Source: a virus (lineage: Duplodnaviria; Heunggongvirae; Uroviricota; Caudoviricetes). From it: a stretch of 35,105 bases of DNA. Under the pieces are notes generated by a model. That model saw nothing but the letters and a program-made list of their open reading frames with translations. It was not told the origin of the DNA and searched no databases. The first letter of the stretch is position 1. Each line of letters starts with the position of its first letter. Shown here piece by piece: positions 2,444 through 23,937 of this stretch. Both the position numbers and the translations under genes were made by a program. The stretch is from positions 1-35,105 of IMG/VR virus record IMGVR_UViG_2711768044_000007. One strand, given 5' to 3'.

Positions 2444-3385
2444 GTGAATAATATGACCGATATTAACGATGTAATCAAGACCATTGATGAACTTATTGAT
2501 GGTGGTGTACTGACGCAGTATGCCATCGCCAGAGAGGCGGGAATTTCCGACGGTACATTATCGGCTTTCCGCAAGGGGAAATATAAAGGCGATAACGTCG
2601 CTGTGGCTGCTTCCCTGCGTTCCTGGTATGAGAACTGGAATAAACAAAGCGCACTGCCCGAGCCGCCGCAGTTTGTGGAAACGCAGACAGTCCATGAACT
2701 GCGCGCACTGTTTCAGGCGGTTCGCCTGATGGGCTGTATTAACGTCATCGTGGGCGTACCGGGTGTGGGTAAAACGGCCACGGCCCGTAATTACTGTCAG
2801 GAGCAACCGAACACCTGGATGATCACCCTGTCGCCCGCGCATTCCAGCGTCACGGAGTGTCTGCTGGAGCTGGCAGAGGAACTGGGGATTGATTACACCC
2901 GCGCGAACAAAGGGGCATTATCCCGCGCCATCCGCCGTCGCCTGATGGGAACGCGTGGACTGGTGATTGTGGATGAGGCGGATCATCTTGGTATTGACGG
3001 TCTGGAGCAACTCCGGGCAATCCAGGACGCCACGGGGATCGGGATGGTGCTTATTGGTAACCCGCGCGGACTGTTTAAAGGTGGACGCCGCGCCGTTGAT
3101 GATTTATCGCGCCTGTTCAGCCGTCTTGCCCGTACAAAACAACTTCGCAAGGCCAAAAAGGCGGATGTGCTGGCCATTGCCAGGGCATGGGGTATCAGTG
3201 GTGAGGCCGAGCTGGCTGTCATGCAGGCTATCGCTGAAAAGCCGGGAGCCTTACGTGTTCTGACGCATACGCTTAACCAGGCGTGGATCACCGCCAGCGG
3301 TGAAGGTGCGGCGCTGACAGAAAAACATATTAATGCGGCCTTTAAAGAGGTTTATACCAACCCTGAATTACTCTCACAGGTGTGA
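2444..3385 (+). CDS. B: MuB-like transposition ATPase (AAA+ target DNA activator)
   Basis: 313 aa; Walker A GVPGVGKT; motifs LPEPPQFVETQTV, VIVDEADHLG, KKADV..IA, EKPGALRVL closely parallel Mu B. Confidence 0.9.
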   Translation: MNNMTDINDVIKTIDELIDGGVLTQYAIAREAGISDGTLSAFRKGKYKGDNVAVAASLRSWYENWNKQSALPEPPQFVETQTVHELRALFQAVRLMGCINVIVGVPGVGKTATARNYCQEQPNTWMITLSPAHSSVTECLLELAEELGIDYTRANKGALSRAIRRRLMGTRGLVIVDEADHLGIDGLEQLRAIQDATGIGMVLIGNPRGLFKGGRRAVDDLSRLFSRLARTKQLRKAKKADVLAIARAWGISGEAELAVMQAIAEKPGALRVLTHTLNQAWITASGEGAALTEKHINAAFKEVYTNPELLSQV

Positions 3386-17550: not shown

Positions 17551-18024
17551 ATGTCATCCATTGATGCGGCCGTGGTGGTGGACGTTACGCGTCTCCAGCG
17601 GGTGTTTGCCCGGCTTCAGTTTGTGGGCGGCGGAAAAGACCTGGCCCGCAGTGTGGCGGCGAGTCTGTTGTCATCGTCAGAAATGGCGTTTGAACAGGAA
17701 AAAGAGCCGGACGGCGAACGCTGGCATGACTGGTCAGATCCTTACCGCAAGTGGCGTACCCGTAAGGGATACACGCCCGGCAAAATCCTGACGCTGAACG
17801 GCGATCTGGCCCGCCGCCTGACCACGGATTATGGCGATACCTGGGCGCTGATTGGATCAAATGAGCCTTATGCAGCCATTCATCAGTGGGGTGGCCTGCC
17901 CGGTATGCCACCGGGACCAGCAGCCATTGGTGCGCGTCCGTATATGGGCTTTGATCAGGTGGCAGAACAGGAGATCATGGACGAAATCAGAAAACGCTTT
18001 AAAAAGGCCACAGAAACGCCGTAA
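17551..18024 (+). CDS. virion morphogenesis protein (Mu G/gp31-like)
   Basis: 157 aa, GGAGG RBS; position between F and I. Confidence 0.7.
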   Translation: MSSIDAAVVVDVTRLQRVFARLQFVGGGKDLARSVAASLLSSSEMAFEQEKEPDGERWHDWSDPYRKWRTRKGYTPGKILTLNGDLARRLTTDYGDTWALIGSNEPYAAIHQWGGLPGMPPGPAAIGARPYMGFDQVAEQEIMDEIRKRFKKATETP

Positions 18025-18201: not shown

Positions 18202-19326
18202 ATGAAGACGAAAAACACGCCCAAACTTGCTTATGCCATTCTGAATGCCATCAGCCTGTCCGCAGACGGGGACGGTGACTGGTGTCAGATCATGCCAGCC
18301 GGTCGGGTAAAGGCCCGTGACGGTCGCCCGGAAAAACCGGCGGAAGGCTGGCTGATTAACCGTGCGACCGTTGAGCGCATGGTATCCCGGGTTGTGGCGC
18401 TCAATCAGCCGGTAAAAATTGACTACAACCACCAGACCCTGATTAAGGGGCATCCGGCACCGGCTGCCGGTTTTGTCATGGCCTCACCGGAAAACTTCCG
18501 CTTCAGTGAAGAGCGGGGTTTTGAAGTGCGTCCGGACTGGAACCCTCCGGCCATTGAACACCTGCGCAATAACGAATTTCCCTGGTTTTCCCCGGTGATT
18601 GGTTATGACGAAATCACCGGTGAACCTGTTGAGCTTCGGATGCTGGCTATTACCGGTGACCCCGGTCTGACTGGCATGAATCCTGTCGCCGCACTGTCGG
18701 CGGATGACCTTTATAACGCCTTAAACCCTCCTTTAAAGGACACCTCCATGAATGAGCAATTACGCCAGTTGCTGACGGCGCTCGGTCTGACCGTGGCTGA
18801 CGGTGACGAATTTACGCCGGAACTGGGCACGGCGGCGCTGTCTGCCCTTACCGGGATCAAAACCCGTGCGGATGCGCACGACACCCTGAAAACGCAGGTT
18901 GCCAGCCTGTCGGCAGAGCTGGAAACCGCAAAAGGCACACCAACTGGCGGCACTATTGATCTGACGAAATACGTGCCCGTTGAGACGTATAACGCCCTGC
19001 GTACCGAATATGTCGCGTTGTCGGCACAACACGGCAGCACCACGCTGGAGCAGTTGCTGGATAAGGCCGAGTCCGAAGGACGCATTTTCAAAAGCGAACG
19101 CGGATACATGGAAGGACTCGGACAACAGATTGGTGTTGCGGCACTTTCTGCACAGCTTGACGCCCGCCAGCCGGTTGCGGCTCTGACCACTCTTCAGACC
19201 GACACCGTAACCGTGCCGGATAAAAAGACCGCCACCGCTGCGCTGTCGGCTGAAGATATCGCCGCCGCCCATCTGCTGGGTAAAACCGAAGCCGAGTTCC
19301 TGAAAATGAAAGAGGAAATGCAATAA
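18202..19326 (+). CDS. head maturation protease/scaffold (Mu I/gp32-like)
   Basis: 374 aa immediately upstream of the major head gene; Ala-rich C-terminal scaffold-like region. Confidence 0.7.
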   Translation: MKTKNTPKLAYAILNAISLSADGDGDWCQIMPAGRVKARDGRPEKPAEGWLINRATVERMVSRVVALNQPVKIDYNHQTLIKGHPAPAAGFVMASPENFRFSEERGFEVRPDWNPPAIEHLRNNEFPWFSPVIGYDEITGEPVELRMLAITGDPGLTGMNPVAALSADDLYNALNPPLKDTSMNEQLRQLLTALGLTVADGDEFTPELGTAALSALTGIKTRADAHDTLKTQVASLSAELETAKGTPTGGTIDLTKYVPVETYNALRTEYVALSAQHGSTTLEQLLDKAESEGRIFKSERGYMEGLGQQIGVAALSAQLDARQPVAALTTLQTDTVTVPDKKTATAALSAEDIAAAHLLGKTEAEFLKMKEEMQ

Positions 19327-20273
19327 TGCCTACCCCGATTACACCGGCGATGATCACCGCCCTGATGACGGGCTACCGTTCTGATTTTCAGGCCGGGATG
19401 TCCATGGCTCCGTCTCAGTACCAGAAAATTGCGATGACTGTACCGTCCACGTCGAAATCCAACACCTACGGCTGGCTGGGGCAGTTCCCGCAGTTCCGTG
19501 AGTGGATCGGCTCCCGCGTCATCGAGAAGATGAAAGCCTATGGCTACGCCATCGTGAACAAAACCTTTGAAGGCACCGTTGCCATTAGCCGCGATGACTT
19601 TGAAGACGACAATCTTGGCATCTACTCCCCGTTGTTCCAGGAGATGGGGCGCGCTGCGGCGGCACAACCGGATGAACTGGTCTTTGCTGCACTGCGTGAT
19701 GGTCTGAATGCGGCCTGCTATGACGGCCAGAACTTCTTTGATACCGAACACCCTGTTTACCCCAAAGTGGATGGCTCCGGTGATGCACAGATGGTCAGCA
19801 ATATGTTTGTGGCAAAAACCGGCTCTGTCGGTGCACAGGCGGATTACAGTGGCCCGGCCTGGTATCTGCTCGACTGCTCCCGCGCGGTAAAACCGCTGAT
19901 TTATCAGGATCGCCGTAAGGCCGAACTGGTTGCCCAGACAAAAGTCGATGAAGGCCGTGCGTTTACTGATAACGAGTTTGTGTTCGGTGCTTCCGCCCGT
20001 CGCAATGTGGGCTACGGCTTCTGGCAGATGGCCTACATGATGCAGTCACCGCTGACGCTGGATGCGCTGTGGCACGGCTGGTCAGCCATGCGTGACTTTA
20101 AGGCTGACGGTGGCCGCAAACTCGGCATCAAACCCACCCATATTGTTGTCCCCACCTCGCTGGAAAAACAGGCGGTGCAGCTGCTGGAGCGCGAGCTGTT
20201 CGCGGACGGTAACACCACCGTCTCTAACGAGATGAAGGGCAAGCTGGAGCTGGTTGTCGCGGATTATCTGTAA
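19326..20273 (+). CDS. major head subunit (Mu T/gp34-like)
   Basis: 315 aa; GAGGAAA RBS; N-terminus MPTPITPAMITALMTGYRSDFQAGMS and overall pattern recall Mu T. Confidence 0.8.
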   Translation: MPTPITPAMITALMTGYRSDFQAGMSMAPSQYQKIAMTVPSTSKSNTYGWLGQFPQFREWIGSRVIEKMKAYGYAIVNKTFEGTVAISRDDFEDDNLGIYSPLFQEMGRAAAAQPDELVFAALRDGLNAACYDGQNFFDTEHPVYPKVDGSGDAQMVSNMFVAKTGSVGAQADYSGPAWYLLDCSRAVKPLIYQDRRKAELVAQTKVDEGRAFTDNEFVFGASARRNVGYGFWQMAYMMQSPLTLDALWHGWSAMRDFKADGGRKLGIKPTHIVVPTSLEKQAVQLLERELFADGNTTVSNEMKGKLELVVADYL

Positions 20274-20316
20274 ACGGTGAGCCGGGCTTACGGCCCGGCC
20301 CCTGCGGAGGGCAAAT

Positions 20317-20748
20317 ATGAATGAACATCACACTGTGGCAGCAACAGATGATTCAGGCCTTCAGGTCAGTGGTGACAGTCCTGTCACGGTTCTGGCAGAA
20401 GTGCGTTGCAGTCGTGCGCAGTTTCGTCGTGCGGGGTTCCTGTTCATGCGGGGACGCCAGCAGGTTGACGTCACCCCGGAGCAGCTTGCCCGACTGGAAG
20501 CGGAGCCATGCCTCACTGTACGAATACTACAGACGCCTGGTGATGATGCGGGAGCCGTGGCGGGTGTGGTTCATGCAGAGACCGGTGCAGATTTAGCTGA
20601 AGCCGAAGCCGAAGCCGAAGCCGAAGCCGAAGCCGAAGCCGAAGCCGAAGCCGAAGCCGAAGCCGAAGCCGAAGCCGAAGCCGGACAGGATGCTCCCCGG
20701 AAAAAGACCGGCAATAAAGCCAGACAGGAAAAAAAGGCGCGCGCATGA
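20317..20748 (+). CDS. hypothetical head-module protein with internal (Glu-Ala)n tract
   Basis: 143 aa; GGAGGG RBS; contains ~14 consecutive EA dipeptides encoded by a GCCGAA tandem repeat; basic C-terminal tail. Confidence 0.5.
   Translation: MNEHHTVAATDDSGLQVSGDSPVTVLAEVRCSRAQFRRAGFLFMRGRQQVDVTPEQLARLEAEPCLTVRILQTPGDDAGAVAGVVHAETGADLAEAEAEAEAEAEAEAEAEAEAEAEAEAEAGQDAPRKKTGNKARQEKKARA
20596..20685 (+). repeat. tandem hexanucleotide repeat (GCCGAA)~14-15 within coding sequence
   Basis: Perfect head-to-tail GCCGAA units visible directly in the sequence from about 20596 to 20685. Confidence 0.9.
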
Positions 20749-21164
20749 ATTACGCCACCGAAACCGATATGCGGGCGCGTTACCGCGAGGATTTGCTCAG
20801 GTCATTACTGGCCGTGCCCCGTTCGGATGAACCGGACACGCGCAAACTGAACCGGGCGCTGACGGACGCGTCTGCCCTTATCGACAGCTACCTGTCTGCC
20901 CGTTACACGCTGCCGCTGGCGGTGGTTCCGGCGGTCCTTGTTCAGCACTGCTGCGCGATTGCCTTTTATTACCTGTGCGATCAACGGGGAGCTGAACAGG
21001 CGCGTGACCGTTATCGTGAGGCGCTGGCCTGGCTGAAAGACGTCATGAACGGCAACGTGCCGGTCGGCGTGGATACCGACGGTGCGGCCCCTGAATCCGG
21101 GGACTTACCGCAGGTACAGTCTGATGCGGCGGTGTTCGGGCGCAACCAGAAGGGCTTTATATGA
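20745..21164 (+). CDS. Mu gp36-like protein (DUF1320-like; head-tail joining)
   Basis: 139 aa, start overlapping upstream stop; position after major head gene. Confidence 0.55.
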   Translation: MNYATETDMRARYREDLLRSLLAVPRSDEPDTRKLNRALTDASALIDSYLSARYTLPLAVVPAVLVQHCCAIAFYYLCDQRGAEQARDRYREALAWLKDVMNGNVPVGVDTDGAAPESGDLPQVQSDAAVFGRNQKGFI

Positions 21165-21718
21165 TTACGGAAACCGAACAGGCGTACATCGCCCGTATCC
21201 GTGAGTATTTCGGGAATGAACTGGTGTCAGTTGACACGCATCCCGGCGACTGGAGCGACAGTGTGCTGCGCACCATGCTGATTAGCGCCCCGGCGATCTA
21301 CGTTGCCTGGCTGGGTGCCGGTGAAGGGCGTACCCGTGGACGTCTGGTCAGCCACTGGGTGTTCTACGTCATCGGCGACATGCTCAATGGCCGTGAGGTC
21401 AGCCGTCCCGGACTTTATCAGATTGTGGCCCGCCTGATTACCGTGCTGGACGGTTTCAGGACAGAAAAAACCTCACCGCTTTACTTTGAAAAGGCGCTTA
21501 ACGGTTACACCGAAACGCAGGCAGACAGCGGTGCCGTGATGTACGCCCTGTATTTCTCATGCGAGGAAATGATCGACCCGCTGACGGATATCAGCTCGCT
21601 GGATGATTTCCTGCGCCATTACGAAACCTTTGTGGAGCCGCCCGGTACGTCGCCGTTTGAGGCACATATTCATCTTAAGGGTACAGGTGAAAACATGAAT
21701 CCCAACGAAGAGGTCTGA
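21161..21718 (+). CDS. Mu gp37-like protein (DUF1834-like)
   Basis: 185 aa, overlapping start; position. Confidence 0.55.
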   Translation: MITETEQAYIARIREYFGNELVSVDTHPGDWSDSVLRTMLISAPAIYVAWLGAGEGRTRGRLVSHWVFYVIGDMLNGREVSRPGLYQIVARLITVLDGFRTEKTSPLYFEKALNGYTETQADSGAVMYALYFSCEEMIDPLTDISSLDDFLRHYETFVEPPGTSPFEAHIHLKGTGENMNPNEEV

Positions 21719-21835
21719 CGATGGATAAACATCAGGATAATACGGCAGAAGCCATGGCGATGACTTCTGCCGGGAATCACAACTCATGGGTGGCATCCTG
21801 GCTGGTAAAGTCCCGTGCCGAATGCCTTCAGTTAA

Positions 21836-22102
21836 TTAGTGAGCTTGATTTGTCTGGTCGCTCTTCGTGGTCGTCACATACTCAAGCGATCCCAAAAGCA
21901 GGTTGACGCCATGAGCGATAGTTTTCTGGTTCTGTGCGAGTAAACCAGTGTGTTGCTGACGAAGTTTGTCCAGAAATTCATTCATGGACAGTGTTCCGTC
22001 CTGTTCCAGTTTCTGGATCAGAATATTCACCGCAATAGCTAACCCATTTACAAGGTCATGAGCGAACTGAATCTCTGGTGATGGTTGATTTTCTGATGAC
22101 AT
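21836..22102 (-). CDS. hypothetical protein, reverse-oriented moron inside the late operon (between gp37-like and gp38-like)
   Basis: 88-aa minus-strand ORF with strong SD (TAAGGAGTCTTT-ATG on the minus strand); region somewhat AT-richer; all Mu late genes are normally co-directional. Confidence 0.55.
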   Translation of the reverse strand: MSSENQPSPEIQFAHDLVNGLAIAVNILIQKLEQDGTLSMNEFLDKLRQQHTGLLAQNQKTIAHGVNLLLGSLEYVTTTKSDQTNQAH

Positions 22103-22177
22103 AAAGACTCCTTATGTTGGTGAAGAAACTATCAGAATGCCCGGTCAGGAAGCTCATCACAAGTACAAGGAGAGCAA

Positions 22178-22456
22178 GTGAAAACCATTTTTATTAAACC
22201 TGCGCCGGGATGCCTGATTCGCGATCCCGACACGATGAATCCGCTCTCACAGGACGGGGAAGAGAAACCCTTCACTCCGTTCTGGTGCCGCCGTCTTAAT
22301 GATGGCGACGTCATTGTGGTGGATAAAACGGCGGAGCCTGCCCCGGCTGCCACAACAGGTAATACCGGCGAGGCTGCAAAACCAGCGGGAGCGGCAGCAG
22401 AAAAACCTGCGGCGGCGGCTGAAAAACCCGCAGCATCAGATAAGGGGACGTCCTGA
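22178..22456 (+). CDS. Mu gp38-like small protein (DUF2635-like)
   Basis: GTG start with AAGGAG RBS; N-terminus MKTIFIKPAPGCLIRDPDTMNPL; Ala/Pro/Lys-rich C-terminus; precedes sheath. Confidence 0.55.
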   Translation: MKTIFIKPAPGCLIRDPDTMNPLSQDGEEKPFTPFWCRRLNDGDVIVVDKTAEPAPAATTGNTGEAAKPAGAAAEKPAAAAEKPAASDKGTS

Positions 22457-23937
22457 TGATTAACTTTGATTTTATCGGCGATAACAATCGCATCCCGCTG
22501 GTACAGATTGAAATCAATAACTCAATGGCCGTGACCGGCACGCCGCCACAGCGTCAGGCGGTGCTGTTATTTGGTCAGCGAAACCGTAATGCGTTTGGTG
22601 TTGTTGATTCTCCTGTCCGTATCACCCGCGCGTCTCAGGCGACAGAACTCTGGGGGCGTGGCTCCATGATTGCGCAGATGGTGGCAGCGTTTATTGCCAT
22701 TAACCCTGATACGGAGCTGTACGGCATTGCACAGGGGGAAGGCACCGGCACGGCCACATCCGGCACCATCACGCTTTCCGGTACAGCAACGGAAGACAAT
22801 GTGCTGAATCTCTATATCGCCGGACGTCCTTACCGTCTGGCCGTCAGCAAAGGCAAACCGGGTAATCTTCTGGCGGATGCGCTTGCCGCGATGATTAACG
22901 CAGACCAGGACTGTCCGGTCAGCGCCACGACCAGCGTCCCCCCGGATAATCAGGATCAGACAAAAAAAGTGATCACCCTGACGGCAAAATTTACCGGCGA
23001 ATGCTCCGTGCATGATATCCGGCTGAATTATTATTCCGGTGAAGTGACACCCGCCGGGATTGTTGTTTCCACTACCGGAGGCACCGCGCCGAAAAACCCG
23101 GATATTACCAACAGCATCGCTGCCATGGGGACGCGCCAGTATAACTATATTGTGATGCCCTATAAGGATGCGGCGAATCTCAAAATTCTGGCGGATGAAC
23201 TGCTGAAACGCTGGGGACCGGTAAAAATGTCAGACGGTATGGTCTGGATGGCGCATACCGGCACCTTCGGCACGGCAACCAGTTTTGGTGAGTCCCGTAA
23301 TGATTTCCTGTTTACCTGCACTTCCATTCCGAAGGCACCGGAGCCGGATTATGTCTGGGCAGCCTCCATTTGTGCAGTCTGTGCGCCGTCACTGTCCGCT
23401 GATCCTGCCCGCCCACTCCAGACGCTGGCGTTGCCTGCACGACTGGCACCGGCAGAATCAGATCGCCTGACACGGGAAGAGCGAAACAGCCTGCTTTATA
23501 CCGGCATGTCCACGGTGACCGTCGCAGCCGCTGATGTGGTGCAGATTGAACGTCAGGTGACGATGTACCGTCAGAATGCATACGGCGAAAGCGATCCCAG
23601 CTATCTGGATGTGGAAACCATCTACACCCTGTCATATCTGCGTTATTCCCTGCGCACCTTTATCACGCAGCGTTTCCCGCGCCACAAACTGGCCGATAAC
23701 GGCACCCCAGTCCGGCCCGGTCAGAATATTGTGACGCCGGAGATTATGACGCTCCAGCTGATTGCACTGGGGGAAGAATGGGTGGATCTGGGACTGGTCG
23801 AAAATCTGGACACCTTTAAAAAGAATCTGCTCGTGGAGCGCAACACAAAAGACCGTAACCGTCTGGATGTGATGTGTACACCGGATCTGGTTAACCAGTT
23901 CCGCTTCATGGCCGCGCAGATCCGTTTCATTTTGTGA
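22456..23937 (+). CDS. tail sheath protein (Mu L/gp39-like)
   Basis: 493 aa; AAGGGGA RBS; position immediately before tube. Confidence 0.8.
   Translation: MINFDFIGDNNRIPLVQIEINNSMAVTGTPPQRQAVLLFGQRNRNAFGVVDSPVRITRASQATELWGRGSMIAQMVAAFIAINPDTELYGIAQGEGTGTATSGTITLSGTATEDNVLNLYIAGRPYRLAVSKGKPGNLLADALAAMINADQDCPVSATTSVPPDNQDQTKKVITLTAKFTGECSVHDIRLNYYSGEVTPAGIVVSTTGGTAPKNPDITNSIAAMGTRQYNYIVMPYKDAANLKILADELLKRWGPVKMSDGMVWMAHTGTFGTATSFGESRNDFLFTCTSIPKAPEPDYVWAASICAVCAPSLSADPARPLQTLALPARLAPAESDRLTREERNSLLYTGMSTVTVAAADVVQIERQVTMYRQNAYGESDPSYLDVETIYTLSYLRYSLRTFITQRFPRHKLADNGTPVRPGQNIVTPEIMTLQLIALGEEWVDLGLVENLDTFKKNLLVERNTKDRNRLDVMCTPDLVNQFRFMAAQIRFIL

Follow-up and report, generated by a model that had tools for sequence, protein, structure and literature searches.

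The stretch of DNA analyzed here (referred to below as the window: all 35,105 nucleotides [nt] of IMG/VR virus record IMGVR_UViG_2711768044_000007) is, judging from its gene content, a Mu-like transposable prophage. Between the genes for the major head protein and a gp36-type adaptor, at the position of Mu gene 35, lies a short open reading frame (ORF) that contains a long in-frame array of a six-nucleotide unit, GCCGAA. The features of this locus are as follows.

19326-20273, + strand: gene of the major head protein gpT (Pfam, PHROG); the product is 52% identical to the major capsid protein of the DMS3/JBD30 type
20306-20311, + strand: Shine-Dalgarno-like GGAGGG, 5 nt upstream of the ATG at 20317 (read from the sequence)
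20317-20748, + strand: repeat ORF, 143 amino acids, HI1506-related/FluMu_N family, counterpart of Mu gp35 (Pfam, PHROG, PDB 2OUT, RefSeq names)
20386-20535, + strand: FluMu_N core, residues 24-73, predicted as beta-hairpin, helix, and strand (AlphaFold, hhalign, profile match to 8RKC_B)
20596-20685, + strand: hexanucleotide array, made up of GCTGAA (20596-20601), 13 perfect copies of GCCGAA (20602-20679), and GCCGGA (20680-20685)
20686-20745, + strand: basic C-terminal tail, QDAPRKKTGNKARQEKKARA (sequence)
20745-21164, + strand: gene of the Mu gp36-type head-tail adaptor (Pfam, PHROG)

The array consists of 15 hexamers, or 90 nt (read from the sequence and counted with a script). It begins at codon 94 of the repeat ORF and encodes (Ala-Glu)14-Ala-Gly, residues 94 to 123, with the translation AEAEAEAEAEAEAEAEAEAEAEAEAEAEA followed by GQDAPRKKTGNKARQEKKARA. 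Tandem Repeats Finder delimited it at 20595-20683, with a period of 6, 14.8 copies, 98% matches, and a score of 171, while the runner-up array in the 35-kb window reached a score of 49. The longest exact period-6 run measured 85 nt, whereas no run exceeded 18 nt when the window was shuffled 200 times. The locus is a head-to-tail series of identical short units far beyond chance, i.e., a coding variable-number tandem repeat (VNTR), or microsatellite. A preliminary description of this DNA, based on its letters and ORFs, had placed the array at exactly these coordinates, 20596-20685, and had proposed counting it with a tandem-repeat finder; re-reading and Tandem Repeats Finder agree with it apart from small corrections. 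The array had been called perfect, which holds for 13 units; there is a synonymous T in the first, and the last reads GCCGGA. Similarly, the tract described as (Glu-Ala)~14 does comprise 14 dipeptides in frame, in the register Ala-Glu.

Other reading frames were considered as the coding frame, namely, an ORF on the + strand at 20321-20596 and minus-strand ORFs encoding (LR)n and (SA)n. They were rejected on the grounds that family matches were obtained only for the frame starting at 20317. The 20321-20596 ORF (+ strand, 91 amino acids) begins 4 nt past the real ATG and ends exactly at the start of the repeat. The database proteins P0070, P0076, P0080, and P0081 are hybrids of the 20317 and 20321 frames, a sign that some assemblies contain indel errors or pseudogenes.

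The repeat ORF matched the Pfam family FluMu_N (PF17891) with 36.3 bits, against a gathering cutoff of 25.8 (E value, 4.3e-9; residues 36-72), as well as PHROG 3622 (function unknown); no NCBIfam model was matched. Its E. coli relatives are named “HI1506-related protein” in RefSeq. The nuclear magnetic resonance structure of HI1506 (FluMu gp35; PDB 2OUT) was recovered with an E value of 2.4e-4 from the single sequence and of 4.3e-13 with a profile, and it was also the top Foldseek match of the model of the ORF product (probability, 1.0). The predicted core fold resembles the N-terminal domain of HI1506, a small alpha/beta domain. Mu gp35 likewise has a FluMu_N domain (E value, 1.8e-10). The location first proposed for the gene, between the major head and gp36-like genes, agrees with the Pfam matches on either side (Mu-like_gpT at 19326-20273 and Phage_Mu_Gp36 at 20745-21164), and the stop codon of the repeat ORF overlaps the start codon of the gp36 gene (ATGA).

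The gene was present in 228 of 5426 complete E. coli genomes, with match spans that varied by 6-nt steps. Sixteen loci were fetched, and they carried 1, 2, 2, 9, 10, 11, 13, 13, 13, 14, 14, 14, 15, 16, 17, and 20 units. Nine of these loci had no mismatches in 479 + 412 nt of flanking sequence and contained 10, 13, 13, 14, 14, 14, 15, 16, and 20 units, so that they differ in unit number alone. Six of these nine belong to the near-clonal cattle strains 118, 119, 120, 131, 132, and 136, which harbor the prophage at one common chromosomal site, with 13, 14, or 15 units. In an evenly spaced sample of 60 records (unit numbers converted from match spans), all values from 1 to 17 units were found, with no single mode, and 12 records had only 1 or 2 units. 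Even among contigs with an identical gp36 protein, the array had 1, 5, 8, 11, 12, 13, or 14 units in total. Wherever a fetched locus had the complete gene (24 loci), the ORF was intact. The variation between isolates in 6-nt steps that had been predicted was thus observed, over a range of 1 to 20 units; the suggested comparison of related prophages showed a repeat number that is not invariant and an ORF that is kept in relatives.

The units are nearly always one and the same codon pair, GCC-GAA, as would be expected of recent slippage rather than of an old low-complexity region, and interrupted alleles also exist (GTCGAA, GCCAAA, GCCGAC, and expanded GCCGGA). The array changes far faster than point substitutions do, by whole units and in frame. 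We infer that the mutational mechanism is slipped-strand mispairing, which is the standard mechanism for such behavior. During replication, it would add or remove whole GCCGAA units, and the sole product of the change would be a longer or shorter (Ala-Glu)n tract, with the frame kept.

The repeat length, or the ORF itself, might in principle be an assembly or annotation error, given that the array does interrupt short-read and k-mer assemblies. Three contigs (L027, L028, and L029) have their first position inside it; a partial protein of 92 amino acids, P0115, is found on 696 contigs; and the records labeled “partial” (also P0064 and P0063) stop at or in the EA tract. However, the array is found in hundreds of independent complete genomes, the flanks agree perfectly, and the frame is validated by the Pfam match and by homologs. 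Furthermore, an independent assembly (GCA_001268265.1; L022, CXXI01000013.1 124997-127816) matches the window without a difference over 2820 nt, the 14 units included. The probability of such an artifact is practically negligible. As a systematic and recurrent breakpoint of short-read assemblies, the array leads draft genomes to underreport long alleles and yields hundreds of “partial” protein records. An exact-sequence lookup missed the 143-residue protein despite the L022 contig encoding an identical sequence, the two indexes being inconsistent.

Close relatives of the gene seem to be confined to prophages of E. coli and Shigella. Among species-representative genomes, there was no EA-type relative, only the two-domain form of Edwardsiella anguillarum.

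A perfect short tandem repeat within a coding sequence, varying by slippage, is also what characterizes contingency loci, the phase-variable genes of Haemophilus and Neisseria. The difference lies in the unit, here a multiple of three, so that the frame is never lost and there is no on/off switch; the length of the protein changes, while its expression is never off. With a 6-nt unit, no frameshift, and all alleles intact, phase variation was rejected as an explanation. It is well known that hexanucleotide VNTRs in coding sequence can differ among close E. coli isolates, and multiple-locus VNTR analysis (MLVA) typing is based on them (PMC3768571). The E. coli O157 loci O157-3, -9, -10, -17, -19, -25, and -37 share with the window locus their 6-bp units, the whole-unit steps, and the variation between close isolates (PMC3768571). 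The array is ordinary in kind, and no new kind of system is revealed. In contrast to the O157 loci, it resides in a transposable prophage found in only 228 of the 5426 complete genomes, so that most strains would score as null alleles. The window locus was not found among published MLVA schemes in a literature search that lay outside the primary locus tables. A literature search for the repeat motif, in every rotation, brought up nothing relevant among the matches listed, and nothing was found for MLVA with Mu-like or Sp18 or for VNTR with prophage; the MLVA locus tables consulted showed neither the motif nor the location. For strains of E. coli, including Shiga toxin-producing E. coli, that carry the Mu-like prophage, the locus is a highly discriminating length marker that separates near-clonal isolates.

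In terms of charge, the protein is strongly partitioned, with a net value of +3 for the core, -14 for the tract, and +6 for the tail (21 residues counted from Gly123). Among E. coli relatives, the tail occurs in a long form (..KQAKKARA) and in a form that is 3 residues shorter (..QARA). AlphaFold run with a 44-sequence alignment predicted the core (residues 21-72) with a predicted local distance difference test (pLDDT) score of 87 to 94 and gave the tract and tail as coil with a pLDDT of <50. On the other hand, the single-sequence AlphaFold run drew the tract as one helix with a pLDDT of 68 to 83, a result that weighs against disorder. Since the tract has no basic residues to pair with its glutamates, a stable single helix would be unlikely at neutral pH. 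A disordered polyanionic spacer is, on these predictions, the most likely state of the tract. The idea that it is flexible and acidic and links an N-terminal domain to a basic tail as a spacer, already put forward in the preliminary description, is consistent with the alignment-based model, with the charges, and with the variable linker found at this place in relatives.

In their general layout, the relatives begin with a segment that varies, followed by a core of ~50 residues, a linker of 20 to 30 residues that is acidic or rich in Pro and Ala, and, at the C terminus, a helical domain of ~45 residues. This core-linker-helical domain arrangement is also that of Mu gp35 and the Edwardsiella homolog. 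HI1506 (2OUT) and Mu gp35 resemble the repeat protein in their Pfam family, gene position, and similar size and in having a core followed by a variable acidic linker. The difference is at the C terminus, which in both of them, as in the Edwardsiella homolog, is formed by a helical domain of ~45 to 50 residues (LNxRIRxAVAxL...GxPKVxAV...). Alignment with relatives indicated that the window protein does not have this domain and that the (AE)n tract and basic tail are in its place, the position of the tract being that of the variable linker.

More distant relatives were reached only with profiles, which were needed to get to the Pseudomonas group; an exhaustive single-sequence search of 1.84 billion representatives returned only 18 matches. 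In every lineage examined, the core is flanked by low-complexity extensions whose length varies. The members from Pseudomonas species have A/K/P-rich N termini and D/E/A-rich C termini, and EAEAEA or AKAKAD stretches occur in unrelated family members. A parallel to the length variation described here is found in gp39 of the JBD30/DMS3 type from P. aeruginosa, which has 113 amino acids in some cases (P0147/P0154) and 146 in others (P0175, P0178, P0182, etc.; L018 1833-2174), the two classes being set apart by a tandem duplication of 33 residues within the disordered N-terminal extension. The (AE)n array takes this habit of the family, in which a small anchor domain bears a disordered extension under weak constraint, to a microsatellite extreme.

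The function of the protein was approached through gp39 of phage JBD30, with which it is connected by profiles and by gene order. Searched against PDB, the family profile matched 8RKC chain B/8RQE (E value, 9.5e-5). The comparison of the enterobacterial and Pseudomonas groups with hhalign gave a probability of 96.5% (E value, 8.8e-10; 55 columns), with residues 26-78 of the window protein aligned to residues 56-113 of DMS3-34, the gp39 homolog in DMS3. The gene order protease, major capsid, FluMu_N protein, and gp36 adaptor is shared with DMS3 and D14K. In JBD30, gp39 forms trimers at the three-fold and quasi-three-fold axes of mature capsids, where it binds the capsid protein on the outer side of the shell; it has a Soc-like beta-tadpole fold with disordered N-terminal residues 1-52, residues 53-113 being the ordered domain bound to the capsid, and was present on only about 5 of 12 particles (PMC11445458). 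Both proteins thus combine a FluMu_N-type core with a long disordered low-complexity extension and are encoded between the major capsid and gp36-type adaptor genes. They differ in that the extension of gp39 is N-terminal and A/P/T/S/K-rich, whereas the window protein has it at the C terminus, in the form of (AE)n and a basic tail. JBD30 is a siphovirus, while the prophage in the window has a contractile tail, and capsid binding is putative here. By its homology with gp39, the FluMu_N core is a putative capsid-binding module.

Capsid decoration is the best-supported role for the repeat protein, for which we would give roughly even odds, and we infer it for the phage of this window from profile homology and synteny. 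Analogous small capsid-binding modules with a projecting flexible extension, dispensable for assembly, are pb10 of phage T5 and Hoc of T4 (cited in PMC11445458). This is a functional analogy only, those proteins displaying Ig-like domains and not a dipeptide repeat. The protein had originally been suggested to be decoration or scaffolding-like; decoration is favored because of the profile link to JBD30 gp39 at the same gene position, and scaffolding did not stand. The Mu-type scaffold (gpZ) is the C-terminal part of protease gene I, and the repeat ORF shows no similarity to it. The Mu record annotates Z inside I, and the corresponding Mu-like_Pro gene of the window is at 18202-19326.

Several observations weigh against decoration. 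The capsid of Mu itself, resolved by cryo-electron microscopy (cryo-EM) at 3.3 to 3.8 Å, showed no cement or decoration protein, and gp35 was left unplaced (PMC11915804). Mu gp35 is a closer relative of the repeat protein than JBD30 gp39 is, and the GenBank record of Mu names gp35 a head-to-tail connector complex protein. The JBD30-type proteins score 21.7 to 22.4 bits with PF17891, just under its cutoff of 25.8, and fold searches did not recover 8RKC_B. At the level of residues, the contacts of gp39 are only partly conserved: E91, S95, D96, and K100 correspond to A58, A62, E63, and T67 in the hhalign alignment, and, in the contact region, only D96 (to E63) and an adjacent Pro are kept. Moreover, the Cys67-Cys72 hairpin disulfide of gp39 is absent from the repeat protein, and Lys66 of the capsid protein, a gp39 contact, aligns with a Glu in the major capsid protein of the window.

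In a different placement, the protein would be an accessory of the neck or connector, or of head completion, and the tract a spacer near the portal vertex. The annotation of gp35 in the Mu record, which cites PMID 29767456, agrees with this, as does the suggestion in the cryo-EM study of Mu, where no capsid cement proteins were seen, that gp35 is a possible additional connector-related protein (PMC11915804). The ATGA overlap would also couple translation of the gene to that of the adaptor gp36. However, the Mu connector at 3.4 to 3.6 Å was made up of gp29, gp36, and gp37 only, without gp35 (PMC11915804), and the only family member located experimentally, JBD30 gp39, is on the three-fold axes of the capsid. 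We consider a connector role rather unlikely.

The distribution of charges (core, +3; tail, +6; with -14 between them) would also fit a nucleic acid-binding protein, whose core and basic tail bind DNA or RNA and whose acidic tract is an intramolecular competitor or DNA mimic. The authors of the HI1506 structure reportedly proposed nucleic acid binding, with basic patches on both domains. However, the Pfam, NCBIfam, and fold searches revealed no homology to a known nucleic acid-binding family, the basic tail is short and variable, and JBD30 gp39 binds the capsid protein outside the shell. We consider nucleic acid binding very improbable.

The comparison made here connects HI1506, Mu gp35, and JBD30 gp39, three database islands that were not linked in the JBD30 and Mu papers; the word “FluMu” occurs 0 times in the former (PMC11445458), and a literature search on HI1506 found no papers. 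Joining a structure without a function (HI1506), an annotated connector (Mu gp35), and JBD30 gp39 provides a testable hypothesis for the role of the Mu gp35 family.

Overall, we favor, with a probability of about 60%, the reading that the gp35-position gene of a Mu-like E. coli prophage here contains a coding microsatellite that is hypermutable and encodes a length-tolerant spacer. The tract directly follows the FluMu_N domain, the part that is ordered and capsid binding in JBD30 gp39, and, together with a basic tail of 20 residues, stands in for the linker and helical C-terminal domain of Mu gp35 and HI1506. It would act as a disordered, strongly acidic spacer ending in the basic tail. The wide range of alleles, common ones of 1 or 2 units included, argues for a loosely constrained length, and under such weak constraint, alleles of 1 to 20 units would be able to coexist. 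Tract length would then be mostly neutral.

The same allele distribution, which has no single mode but spreads broadly and almost evenly over 1 to 17 units, with one further allele of 20, might instead reflect adaptive tuning, that is, diversifying or fluctuating selection on the tract length of a capsid-coating protein. In such a case, length would determine how thick and how charged a polyanionic brush is (roughly 415 copies × 14 Glu), and this brush would alter aggregation, adhesion to mucus or surfaces, stability to pH or cations, or recognition by the host or the immune system, with slippage as the generator of variants. Long pure arrays are retained in many lineages, and E/A- or D/A-rich stretches recur independently in the distant members P0084, P0133, and P0134, both of which would fit selection. 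However, fast stepwise mutation under weak constraint also gives a flat distribution, the majority of carriers are lysogens, where the gene stays silent in most generations, and the frequency of 1- and 2-unit alleles (12/60) indicates that a long brush is not required. We regard adaptive tuning as unlikely, and the length-tolerant spacer as the preferred reading.

A broader proposal can be made, although we think it quite improbable. All FluMu_N proteins, Mu gp35 and HI1506 among them, would be widespread labile capsid decorations, made up of a 50-residue anchor and a fast-evolving disordered extension. In Mu-like prophages of E. coli, a slippage-driven polyanionic (Ala-Glu)n brush would have taken the place of the displayed domain, with 2 to 40 residues on about 400 copies per virion, as an evolvable setting of virion surface charge and gut behavior. 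If this were true, the brush would be a nonswitching, graded counterpart of contingency loci, on a virus particle. The locus offers a natural length series (n = 1 to 20) of an acidic linker at a possible capsid display position, which could be of interest for phage display and capsid engineering.

The other genes of the window that were identified with Pfam are those of a Mu-like transposable phage.

281-2371: MuA-type transposase
2444-3385: MuB
14516-16114: Mu portal
16098-17429: gpF
17551-18024: gpG
18202-19326: protease/scaffold I (Mu-like_Pro)
21161-21718: gp37
22178-22456, + strand: DUF2635 (Mu gp38 position)
22456-23937: sheath

Just 5′ of the portal gene, an ORF of 554 amino acids (12861-14525, + strand) lies where the large terminase is expected by position; it had no Pfam match at an E value of 0.01. 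Directly after the stop codon of gpT, there is a GC-rich hairpin without a T-run (20279-20301, + strand), and the Mu record has a terminator predicted by TransTermHP at the matching place. A terminator scan made no call for the hairpin in the window, and its fold z-score was -1.46. It could set the ratio of the major head protein to the downstream proteins.

Between the genes of gp37 and DUF2635, a segment of ~460 bp (21719-22177) contains an orphan minus-strand ORF of 88 amino acids (21836-22102) with no Pfam or PHROG match. In the related prophages L021, L023, and L026, the DUF2635 gene comes directly after gp37, and the segment looks like an inserted moron. The DUF2635 protein has a low-complexity tail rich in Ala, Lys, Pro, and Glu at its end, where an AAEKPAA motif is imperfectly repeated, and is another small protein of the virion module with a disordered tail. 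Finally, two database proteins contain parts of the repeat protein in unusual combinations: P0085 is a fragment of an EAL domain fused to the EA tract and basic tail, and P0083 has the first 41 residues of the repeat protein fused to a PF10076 (Mu tail) domain. Both are probably chimeric assemblies or remnants of prophage deletion.
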